Positions 14,142 through 15,898 of a stretch of 40,640 bases of DNA are shown here, piece after piece. The position numbers and the translations under genes are program-made. The stretch lies in the IMG/VR virus record IMGVR_UViG_2541047698_000019. One strand, 5' to 3'. Source of the stretch: a virus (lineage: Duplodnaviria > Heunggongvirae > Uroviricota > Caudoviricetes). Within the stretch, counting starts at the first letter, position 1. Each line of letters starts with the position of its first letter. The notes under the pieces were generated by a model, which searched no databases, was not told the origin of the DNA, and saw nothing but the letters and a program-made list of their open reading frames with translations.

Positions 14142-14894
14142 ATGAACCTTGAAGCCTTACCGAAATATTACTCCCCGAAATCTCCAAAACTGAGCGATGA
14201 TGCACCGGCGACAGGCTCTGGTGGTTTAACAATTACGGATGTGATGGCTGCGCAGGGGATGGTGCAGTCGAAAGCACCGCTTGGGTTTGCCTTATTCCTG
14301 GCAAAAGTTGGTGTTCAGGATCCTCAGTTTGCGATTGAAGGTCTGCTCAATTACGCGATGGCACTGGATAACCCGACATTGAATAAATTGAGTGAAGAAA
14401 CCCGGCTACAGATCATTCCTTACCTTGTGAATTTTGCCTTTGCTGATTATTCCAGGTCTGCGGCAAGTAAGGCTCGCTGTGAGCATTGTGCAGGTACGGG
14501 ATTTCATAATGTATTGCGCGAAGTGGTGAAACACTCCAGAAGCGGGGAGTCTGTTATCAAGGAAGAGTGGGTGAAGGAACTATGTCAGCATTGTCATGGT
14601 AAGGGAGAAGTCAGCACAGCGTGCAGAGGGTGTAAGGGTAAAGGTATTGTCCTGGATGAAAAAAGGACCCGGCTTCATGGCACGCCTGTTTATAAGATTT
14701 GTGGGCGTTGCAATGGAAACCGGTTTAGCCGTTTACCAACCACACTGGCGCGGTGTCATGTCCAGAAGCTGGTACCAGCCCTGACTGATTATCAGTGGTA
14801 CAAAGGATATGCAGATGTCATTGATAAACTGGTGACAAAGTGCTGGCAGGAAGAAGCATATGCTGAGGCGCAATTAAGAAAAGTGACGAGATAA
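14142..14894 (+). CDS. late-gene antiterminator Q-like protein
   Basis: ORF track 14100-14894 trimmed to the ATG of MNLEALPKYY (GGAG RBS). Cys-rich zinc-binding cluster CxxC...CxxC. Located immediately upstream of the late promoter/terminator and lysis cassette. Confidence 0.65.
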   Translation: MNLEALPKYYSPKSPKLSDDAPATGSGGLTITDVMAAQGMVQSKAPLGFALFLAKVGVQDPQFAIEGLLNYAMALDNPTLNKLSEETRLQIIPYLVNFAFADYSRSAASKARCEHCAGTGFHNVLREVVKHSRSGESVIKEEWVKELCQHCHGKGEVSTACRGCKGKGIVLDEKRTRLHGTPVYKICGRCNGNRFSRLPTTLARCHVQKLVPALTDYQWYKGYADVIDKLVTKCWQEEAYAEAQLRKVTR

Positions 14895-14925
14895 ATGATT
14901 TTCGCCGAAGATAGCGACATGATTC

Positions 14926-14954
14926 TTGCATTTTTCAAAAAATCTGGTTAGGAT
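14926..14954 (+). promoter_or_regulatory. candidate late promoter (PR'-like) TTGCAT-N17-TAGGAT overlapping a 17-bp palindrome GTTAGGAttcTCCTAAC
   Basis: Hexamers and spacing read directly. Position downstream of Q and upstream of a strong terminator matches the lambdoid PR'/qut/tR' layout. Confidence 0.35.
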
Positions 14955-15000
14955 TCTCCTAACGATGGGCTTTGTGTGTCTACCGTTGATAATCTTCAAG

Positions 15001-15026
15001 AAACCGCCACCGAGCGGTTTTTTATT
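15001..15026 (+). terminator. rho-independent terminator (tR'-like)
   Basis: aaaccgc-caccga-gcggttt followed by a T-run. Confidence 0.6.
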
Positions 15027-15182
15027 GATGTCAATTGTGTTTTTAAGGCTCTCCTTCCTTAAAGTGTGTTGTACAAAAAACTGGCAGCCAGCTACGCTCA
15101 TTTTGAAAAAGTGACACCCTTCAATGTTTCTTTTGAATGGAATTGCTACCCATAAATCTCTATCAAAAACAGGAGAGCATAT

Positions 15183-15425
15183 ATGGTGGAGCGTTGTTCT
15201 GTTTGTGAGCAGTCATTAAGTTATTCACGAGAAGTTGAACAAGATGGCGTTGAATATAAATCTTGCCCAAAATGTTCTGCTGATGCCGGAGTGCACGTTT
15301 TTTATAAAACAATAGACTTTGGTTATAGGGATATGGGAGACGGAAGGCATATCGTTCAGTCATGGTGTCCGGCTTGTCGTTCTGGTGAAAAACCTTCTAT
15401 ACCACCAGCATTTAAATGTTGTTAA
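15183..15425 (+). CDS. small zinc-ribbon protein (moron between Q and the holin)
   Basis: 80 aa, AGGAG RBS. Two CxxC pairs (C5/C8, C28/C31), a third CxxC (C62/C65) and a terminal CC. AT-rich. Bracketed by terminators. Confidence 0.5.
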   Translation: MVERCSVCEQSLSYSREVEQDGVEYKSCPKCSADAGVHVFYKTIDFGYRDMGDGRHIVQSWCPACRSGEKPSIPPAFKCC

Positions 15426-15442
15426 CTCAATGAATTATAAAA

Positions 15443-15469
15443 AGAGGCTGCCTGTGGGCGGCCTTTTTT
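15443..15469 (+). terminator. rho-independent terminator after the zinc-ribbon gene
   Basis: gaggctgcc-tgtg-ggcggcc followed by tttttt. Confidence 0.65.
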
Positions 15470-15547
15470 GTGCACTACGCAACTTTTGCGACTCAGCGCT
15501 ATAACCAGCTTCTTTCCCTTCACTCGTTGCACTTCCGATAACCGGAG

Positions 15548-15898
15548 GTGGGAATTATGAAAATGCATAACGATCCTCATTCCTGGTCTGACTTACTTGA
15601 ATTATTACAGAGCTGGTGGCGTGGAGACACACCGCTGGGCGCAGTAATTATGTCGATCGTTATGGCTGGCTTGCGCATTGCCTATTTTGGCGGTGGTGGT
15701 GGCTGGAAGCGAAAAACGCTCGAGATTTTGCTCTGCGGCGCTCTGACGCTGACTTTTGCATCCGCTCTTGAGTATGTCGGATGGCCTAAATCGCTTTCTG
15801 TTGCCATTGGTGGTGGCGTTGGGTTGATCGGTGTCGATGCTATTCGTGGGGCTGCAATGAGAGTAATCGGTAACAAGTTTGGTGGCTCTAAGGAGTAA
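15548..15898 (+). CDS. holin
   Basis: 116 aa with hydrophobic segments, Gly-rich turn and charged C-terminus. Multi-Met N-terminus MGIMKMH suggests a dual-start holin/antiholin. Immediately upstream of the endolysin. Confidence 0.65.
   Translation: MGIMKMHNDPHSWSDLLELLQSWWRGDTPLGAVIMSIVMAGLRIAYFGGGGGWKRKTLEILLCGALTLTFASALEYVGWPKSLSVAIGGGVGLIGVDAIRGAAMRVIGNKFGGSKE

Follow-up and report, generated by a model that had tools for sequence, protein, structure and literature searches.

The 40,640-nucleotide stretch of DNA analysed here (IMG/VR virus record IMGVR_UViG_2541047698_000019, Caudoviricetes; this whole stretch is called the window below) carries, between the antiterminator gene Q and the holin gene of a lambdoid prophage, a gene for an 80-amino-acid protein, ORF80. 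We propose that ORF80 is a separately transcribed moron in the late operon, which would encode a modulator of DNA restriction or modification, and we assign this reading a probability of roughly one half. A moron is a promoter-gene-terminator unit placed between phage backbone genes, and the Shiga toxin (Stx) genes are an example of morons in the Q-to-S interval of lambdoid phages. The restriction or modification role is proposed because relatives of ORF80 lie in restriction-modification (R-M) operons, stand beside orphan methyltransferases of phages, or are fused to HNH or helix-turn-helix (HTH) domains. The features of the ORF80 cassette are as follows.

15062-15443 (roughly), + strand: extent of the ORF80 cassette, from homology breakpoints with the related loci E7476 and ST648
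15111-15124, + strand: inverted repeat GTGA-N6-TCAA of CRP/FNR type, from its conservation at fixed spacing
15144-15152, + strand: extended -10-like sequence TGcTACCCA, in which TGnTA is nearly invariant
15171-15175, + strand: Shine-Dalgarno sequence AGGAG, 7 nt 5' of the ATG and kept in relatives
15183-15425, + strand: ORF80, predicted two-zinc ribbon protein of 80 aa (WP_001306866.1; phrog_7682)
15440-15469, + strand: intrinsic terminator 3' of ORF80, from folding, conservation and covariation

ORF80 is a real gene under strong purifying selection. Among 16 homologues taken from the loci, synonymous differences per synonymous site (pS) are saturated at 0.65-0.83, nonsynonymous differences per nonsynonymous site (pN) are 0.15-0.31, and the median dN/dS is 0.13 (finite values only); variable alignment columns number 50, 44, and 77 at the first, second, and third codon positions. 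The RefSeq entry is labelled hypothetical protein, and the protein matches phrog_7682, a family of unknown function, with an E-value of 7.2e-60 (residues 1-80 on profile positions 1-80). A first search returned 20 homologue clusters with 57-99% identity, which include Citrobacter and, with a single exception, are 78-80 aa long, and an exhaustive search returned 112 representatives at the 50% level. ORF80 is known only from prophages and metagenomic contigs, and tblastn of 50,697 GenBank phage records gave no match. Literature searches found no paper on the protein or its PHROG; the protein family is already catalogued but uncharacterised, and the kind of element, a moron, is well known.

ORF80 is also accessory and compositionally foreign. 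Of 5426 complete E. coli genomes, 24 carry it, whereas 151 have the same Q leader, mostly with other cargo in the slot. Its GC content is 40.7% and its GC content at third codon positions (GC3) is 23.5%, compared with a GC3 of 47-48% for Q and the holin gene. The gene thus shows patchy presence among syntenic relatives, its own 3' terminator, and a distinct composition, as morons do. An original prediction, made from the sequence alone, had described the interval as a moron site in which a candidate late promoter is followed by an AT-rich gene for an 80-aa CxxC protein with its own ribosome-binding site (RBS), bracketed by two terminators. Its elements (a palindrome, both terminators, the ORF, and the RBS) all lie at or within a few bases of where it had placed them. 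The moron reading is borne out by the accessory distribution, by the other cargo found in the loci GF131 and ST648, and by the foreign composition; the AT-rich ORF with its AGGAG proves to be a selected gene, predicted to bind zinc; and the late promoter and the two terminators agree with the comparisons and foldings given below. Two refinements can be added, namely a promoter-like element of ORF80's own and its recurrence before at least four holin types.

The zinc-ribbon protein and the restriction-modification context of its relatives

The cysteines of ORF80 form the pairs C5/C8, C28/C31, and C62/C65, plus C79. Across homologues C5, C8, C28, C31, and H38 do not vary, and C62, C65, and C79 hardly do. 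The N-terminal CxxC, the histidine (H38), and the C-terminal cysteine occur together in 138 of 178 homologues, all three are missing from 27, and only 13 have some of them; shorter relatives retain only C28/C31/C62/C65. This pattern suggests two zinc ions, one in a core Cys4 site (C28, C31, C62, C65) and one in an accessory Cys3His clasp (C5, C8, H38, C79). The accessory site is proposed because the CxxC, the histidine, and the C-terminal cysteine come jointly or not at all, and such a clasp would tie both termini of the protein together.

The original prediction had named structure prediction and remote-homology search as checks on this protein. An AlphaFold2 model built from a 21-sequence alignment is compact (pLDDT 84, pTM 0.69), with short strands and a predicted helix starting at C62-C65 in a treble-clef-like arrangement. 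Searches of Pfam, NCBIfam, PADLOC, PDB, and fold libraries with ORF80 gave nothing significant. Zn_ribbon_TFIIB (PF13453; 14.9 bits, cut-off 22), Zn_ribbon_8 (PF09723; 12.9 bits, cut-off 34.4), and FmdB (TIGR02605; 19.5 bits, cut-off 31.3) all remained below their cut-offs, none of the 5027 models of PADLOC-DB v2 matched at E <= 1, and neither Mu Com nor lambda orf-64 gave a match when compared with it. The best PDB-sequence profile match, the CSL/DPH3 zinc finger (E 0.14), was judged to be noise, and the large PA14-repeat proteins matched in a single-sequence search were judged to be spurious. ORF80 lacks both a signal peptide and membrane segments.

A DNA methyltransferase or restriction enzyme lies beside family members in 16 of 33 species-representative loci, with the methyltransferase at most two ORFs away. 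Among the methyltransferases near the gene, the D12/Dam class was found 11 times, N6_N4 nine times, and MT-A70 three times, and near family members DpnII endonucleases were found twice and a DUF6996/6997/7226 protein five times. In R-M operons from Firmicutes and other phyla, the zinc-ribbon gene (ZnR) stands in the order D12 methylase, ZnR, DpnII, N6_N4 methylase (L046, 837-3700), in the order D12 methylase, ZnR-HNH fusion of 379 aa, N6_N4 methylase (L044, 2864-5840), or in the order D12 methylase, DUF6996/6997/7226 protein, ZnR (L039, 1827-4255; the last order is also that of L048, L050, L051, and L038). In prophages of Xenorhabdus, Sodalis, Proteus, and Kosakonia, a methylase directly adjoins the zinc-ribbon gene. 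Moreover, some HNH nucleases (P0081, P0096, P0114, and P0102) carry the ORF80 domain as their N-terminal module, and in P0041 it is located C-terminal to an HTH domain. Since the nuclease is fused to the zinc ribbon in some systems and adjacent to it in others, these arrangements suggest a physical or regulatory tie to restriction enzymes or their DNA substrate.

Transcription signals around ORF80

A common layout precedes ORF80 and its relatives: an A-tract, xxGA-N6-TCAx, 19 nt, TGnTA, 31-36 nt, and the ATG. GA-N6-TC, 21 nt, and TGnTA recur at exactly this spacing in 35 of 65 distinct upstream regions, in which the intervening sequence has diverged. If TGn is read as part of an extended -10, it is preceded at 17 nt by a -35-like xxGAxx; transcription of ORF80 is then predicted to start at about 15159, and CATAAA at 15152-15157 is an alternative -10. 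With TGnTA as the -10, the inverted repeat would be centred at -41.5, and centring at -41.5 is the geometry of class II CRP/FNR promoters. When compared with the consensus sites TGTGA-N6-TCACA (CRP) and TTGAT-N4-ATCAA (FNR), 25 distinct inverted repeats agree on average at 7.4 of 10 positions with FNR and at 6.8 of 10 with CRP. The repeat of the window, GTGACACCCTTCAA, agrees at 7 of 10 with both, and those of relatives at up to 9 of 10. ORF80 is likely to have a promoter of its own, rated only likely because the hexamers in the window are weak and the start site is predicted.

Two kinds of known promoters resemble this region. Class II CRP/FNR promoters share with it a 14-16 bp repeat with a GA-N6-TC core at -41.5 (counted here from a start that is predicted only) and a weak -35, but the half-sites upstream of ORF80 are hybrid (GTGA...TCAA in the window). 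The C-boxes of R-M controller (C) proteins are likewise found at promoters without a good -35 and have an inverted repeat near -40, as does the candidate ORF80 promoter, and C proteins, like the ORF80 family, are encoded by small genes within R-M operons. C proteins are, however, HTH proteins whereas ORF80 is a zinc ribbon, and the half-sites of the repeat do not covary symmetrically with the protein. An operator bound by ORF80 itself was considered and rejected: the left half-site varies with no matching changes in the right one, and this asymmetric change favours a tolerant host factor over binding by ORF80. An RNA hairpin was also rejected as a reading of the repeat, its stems being just 3-5 bp long and differing between loci.

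In ST648 a perfect CRP consensus, TGTGATCTTCATCACA (L116, 2224-2239), is located before an unrelated ORF of 67 aa, and it has GATCTTCATCA in common with the inverted repeat of ORF80 cassettes of the Citrobacter/Enterobacter type.

At the other end of the cassette, the hairpin and U-run at 15440-15469 fold with a dG of -19.6 kcal/mol (z -3.8; 0 of 200 shuffles equally good). In 13 loci a terminator is kept at this place, 10-25 nt past the stop codon, with compensatory changes at two pairs of the stem.

The cassette is preceded by a second set of signals, just 3' of Q.

14926-14969, + strand: candidate late promoter pR', with layout and 9-mer as in lambda pR'
14998-15026, + strand: intrinsic terminator, from folding and a compensatory change in GF131, taken to be tR' in the late leader

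The candidate pR' consists of TTGCAT (14926-14931), a 17-nt spacer, the -10-like TAGGAT (14949-14954), six nucleotides (tctcct), and AACGATGGG (14961-14969). The 17-bp palindrome GTTAGGA-TTC-TCCTAAC at 14947-14963 overlaps TAGGAT and the late promoter. Lambda pR' reads TTGACT, 17 nt, TAAATT, tgactc, AACGATGGG, so that the spacing and the 9-mer are identical to those of the window; in lambda this 9-mer contains the sigma70-dependent pause-inducing element, the site of Q loading. The lambda-type layout is found in full here: the candidate promoter is just 3' of Q, its -10-like pause element occupies +1 to +6, and a terminator follows at some distance. GF131 and ST648 have variants of pR' that keep this layout. 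The hairpin and U-run at 14998-15026 have a dG of -13.5 kcal/mol and a z-score of -3.8 (1 of 200 shuffles equally good), and GF131 has a compensatory change in the stem, from AACCGC/GCGGTT to ACCCGC/GCGGGT. The segment 14895-15034, the first 140 nt after Q, is common to the 151 E. coli genomes mentioned above, whereas the whole interval is found in only 23. Because the leader segment recurs in so many more genomes than the full interval, 14926-15026 is best read as pR' plus tR', which would give a terminated leader of about 65 nt.

A simple pattern and consensus scanner applied to 14700-15700 called neither + strand terminator and no + strand promoter. Its negatives are unreliable in this region because both missed hairpins fold with a z-score of about -3.8. 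The terminator calls thus rest on folding and conservation, and the promoter calls on comparison with lambda and with relatives. Compared with the pR'-qut-tR' late leader of lambda (the 6S RNA region), the order of -10, six nucleotides, AACGATGGG, and an intrinsic terminator is the same; however, Q here belongs to PF03589 and that of lambda to PF06530, the terminated leader would be about 65 nt rather than 194 nt, and the -35 and -10 hexamers differ.

The Q-to-holin slot in related prophages

The limits of the cassette are set by two loci. Homology with E7476 starts at window position 15062, upstream of which E7476 has two extra genes after Q. Homology with ST648, which carries different cargo, resumes exactly at the second terminator, at 15444. 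The ST648 slot holds the 67-aa ORF mentioned above (L116, 2281-2484). On its 5' side are a Q related to that of the window and a leader that varies in sequence but keeps the layout; on its 3' side, the terminator and holin leader are those that the window has from 15444 onward. In GF131 (L003, 3203-3382, in the slot equivalent to window 15035-15547), the same Q, pR', and tR' are followed by a different ORF of 59 aa that is rich in cysteine (MSNTRCSNESCNKEF...ICPYCGH), with an RBS of its own and hairpins 3' of the ORF; alternative small cargo of zinc-ribbon-like type thus uses this slot. The extra genes of E7476 (L002, 1272-2855) are on the + strand between Q and ORF80, encode proteins of 335 and 187 aa with no Pfam match, and are followed by a terminator 5' of the ORF80 cassette.

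A survey of the same site in related prophages, as the original prediction had suggested, covered 60 loci from IMG/VR, 39 genome loci that each represent a species, and nine assembled contexts; it showed that relatives recur in the slot and that other cargo can replace them. In prophages of Enterobacterales, relatives of ORF80 lie between Q and the lysis genes, with a Q of either PF03589 or PF06530. At least four holin types are found 3' of them (lambda-S, Phage_holin_8 together with holin_3_7, P21-type, and others). Two flanks, the promoter-like layout and the covarying terminator, travel with the gene across Q families and holin types. ORF80 thus resembles other lambdoid morons in its Q-to-holin slot 3' of pR'/tR', its patchy presence, its atypical composition, and its own terminator and promoter-like element. 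It differs from Stx-type morons in that the cargo is a small cytoplasmic zinc protein rather than a toxin or envelope protein, and from other morons in that its relatives recur in the slot before several unrelated holin families.

In prophages with a PF06530-type Q, defence-like cargo on the minus strand, opposite to Q, directly follows Q and in one locus overlaps its stop codon. Examples of this cargo are an M78 peptidase with an HTH protein, HEPN plus GmrSD with a C5 methylase, RelA_SpoT plus NA37, and an MBL-fold hydrolase with two unknown genes (L004, 3783-4705; L006, 2949-4800; L008, 2732-4809; L054, 46-2381). The part of the interval nearest to Q is thus a hotspot for cargo. 3' of the cargo and 5' of the lysis genes, prophages with lambda/QuuD-type Q have a conserved element.

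L004 4846-4885, L053 2501-2547, and L054 2501-2557: conserved element CTAACGCGTACGC...TGTTAAGAGTGG

The element occurs in 438 genomes of E. coli, whether ORF80 is present or not, and its palindrome covaries (GCGTACGC, TGTGGTCCACA, and TGCGGTCCGCA). It is probably the late promoter or Q-binding region of that Q family. If it is the late promoter, Q is separated from it by the defence cargo, and ORF80 would lie 3' of the late promoter in both Q systems. No obvious terminator was seen between the element and ORF80 in loci with PF06530-type Q; as a speculation, the ORF80 terminator may act there as tR'. We also considered ORF80 as a regulator of the divergent defence cargo and rejected it: the cargo differs from locus to locus and is absent from the window, and in prophages with lambda/QuuD-type Q the candidate late-promoter element stands between cargo and ORF80.

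The Photorhabdus homologues (L025-L036; 82-86 aa as listed ORFs) adjoin small multidrug resistance genes (PF00893) rather than lysis genes, and their upstream inverted repeat differs (CAGTG-N6-CACTG).

Proposed role, rival explanations and prophage setting

According to the explanation that we prefer, transcripts from pR' would end at tR' in the lysogen, and ORF80 would be transcribed from its own weak promoter, with an extended -10 and a site for a CRP/FNR-family activator near -41.5. These transcripts would end at 15440-15469, which would insulate the holin gene. After induction, Q-modified RNA polymerase would pass both terminators, so that ORF80 would be made as the first late protein as well. 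The protein would bind nucleic acid or a nuclease or methylase partner and act as a controller or as a restriction-alleviation factor. The original prediction had offered a regulator, an anti-defence factor, or an exclusion factor as possible functions; the occurrence of relatives in R-M operons and in fusions to HNH nucleases narrows these options towards the biology of DNA modification and restriction. More specifically, and only tentatively, restriction endonucleases may have in this family a zinc-ribbon partner or controller that had gone unrecognised, above all in systems of GATC type (a Dam-class methylase plus DpnII or HNH). Lambdoid prophages would have captured a free copy as a CRP/FNR-controlled cassette at the start of the lysis operon, and this cassette would reprogramme host R-M in lysogens and during late growth.

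Several observations weigh against this preferred explanation. The -10 (TACCCA) and -35 (ATGTTT) in the window are poor, and the consensus scanner called no promoter there. The inverted repeat matches the CRP and FNR consensus at only 7 of 10 positions, so another factor could bind it, and the perfect CRP site of ST648, 29 nt before the ATG, is too near for a class II activator site. Neither a methyltransferase nor a nuclease adjoins ORF80 in the window, where its neighbours are Q and the holin gene and a phage Dam-type methylase lies about 4 kb upstream, so that the function of ORF80 is inferred by transfer from its relatives; what association suggests for relatives in distant phyla may not hold for the enterobacterial subfamily. 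The late operon is an atypical site for classical anti-restriction genes, and the fold and sequence searches gave no similarity to characterised DNA-binding or anti-restriction proteins.

The same domain fusions could also be taken to mean that ORF80 is an anti-defence decoy, a free zinc-ribbon module that poisons or competes with HNH or DpnII-type enzymes in new hosts. The domain is N-terminal in HNH nucleases, one of which is encoded between two methylases, the protein is small and phage-derived, and the Q-to-holin interval of relatives is full of conflict genes (GmrSD plus HEPN, RelA_SpoT plus NA37, M78 plus HTH). We regard a decoy as unlikely: late or lysogenic expression is the wrong timing for shielding incoming DNA, the co-encoding of a stand-alone gene with a nuclease in R-M operons suggests a partner or controller over an inhibitor, and no known anti-restriction family was matched. 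In particular, the Lar-like phrog_6422 gave only a sub-threshold E-value of 0.7, with no stretch passing alone, and Pfam Lar was not matched. Lar and Ral are, like ORF80, small prophage proteins, Lar being cysteine-rich as well, and may have in common with it a role in host restriction or modification; however, they are encoded by early or nin-region genes and ORF80 by a late-operon moron.

It is similarly improbable that ORF80 is a lysogenic-conversion or superinfection-exclusion factor which is unrelated to restriction and switched on by host CRP or FNR. The moron architecture with a conserved host-regulator-like site would suit such a factor, and classic morons affect host fitness: Stx in this interval, and bor and lom, which are lambda morons at other positions. 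On the other hand, a signal peptide and a membrane segment are both absent, none of the PADLOC models was matched, and the family context indicates DNA methylases and nucleases.

A role in lysis is less likely than modulation of restriction or modification, and we doubt it. ORF80 would in that case be an accessory of the lysis cassette that tunes the expression or timing of holin and endolysin, for example as a translational regulator like Mu Com, a zinc-finger activator of the translation of mom. In 24 of 35 distinct loci a holin-like membrane ORF indeed begins less than 700 nt 3' of the gene, and this extends over two Q families and four or more holin types. Mu Com, itself a small zinc protein, switches on translation of the gene that follows it, and the source of one remote homologue gives that protein the name Com. 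Yet ORF80 is missing from most prophages that have this Q leader or this holin, a terminator separates it from the holin gene, methylase or unknown ORFs sometimes intervene, the protein has no membrane segment, and distant relatives are found in R-M operons with no lysis genes nearby. Moreover, comparison with Mu Com by hhalign gave a probability of just 4.3% over 27 columns, and no Pfam Com match was obtained at E <= 1. Both are small phage zinc proteins of the form CxxC...CPxC, and relatives of ORF80 often stand beside a DNA-modification gene, but Com has no counterpart to the second, conserved half of ORF80 (FGxRxMGDGxxxxQSWCxxCR).

A non-functional ORF or decaying remnant, as rare truncated variants (55 aa in P0019; 43 aa in P0068 and P0218) and the omission of the ORF by PGAP in 7 of the 24 genomes might suggest, is in effect excluded by the strong purifying selection, besides which the Cys/His ligands are (nearly) invariant, homologues with 57-99% identity occur in many genera, and conservation extends to the RBS, the promoter-like element, and the terminator.

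The Q-to-holin interval is the site of Shiga toxin and, judging from the relatives, of many defence systems. The recurrence of ORF80 across genera and across Q and holin families, with its own flanks, makes it a good candidate for a function relevant to the lysogen. The most noteworthy parts are the R-M association and the conserved promoter-like element of host-factor type: the link to methyltransferases, DpnII, and HNH nucleases gives a widespread small zinc protein a concrete hypothesis, that of a modulator or partner of restriction enzymes, and control of CRP/FNR type, if true, would mean that prophage cargo is wired to physiological signals of the host. If no such reading holds, ORF80 is another hypothetical moron.

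The 653 bp examined are 100% identical to E. coli strain 47-1826, and the window is a lambdoid prophage. The gene order at the 47-1826 locus is nin-region genes, DUF968, Q, ORF80, holin, endolysin, Rz/Rz1, HNH, and terminase. Neither the interval nor the window as a whole gave an Rfam or tRNA hit above the gathering score or threshold. The interval itself has the order Q, pR'-like promoter, terminator, ORF80, second terminator, and holin, with the following flanking genes.

14142-14894, + strand: antiterminator Q gene of Q82/YdfT type (PF03589, E 1.4e-52)
15557-15898, + strand: holin gene of the lambda S family, first gene of the lysis cassette (PF05106, E 5e-28; RefSeq annotation)

The Q start at 14142 is the RefSeq placement, with coding-sequence coordinates mapped from L001. 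The holin gene has a dual start, Met-Lys-Met at 15557/15563, which was compared with the start of lambda S.

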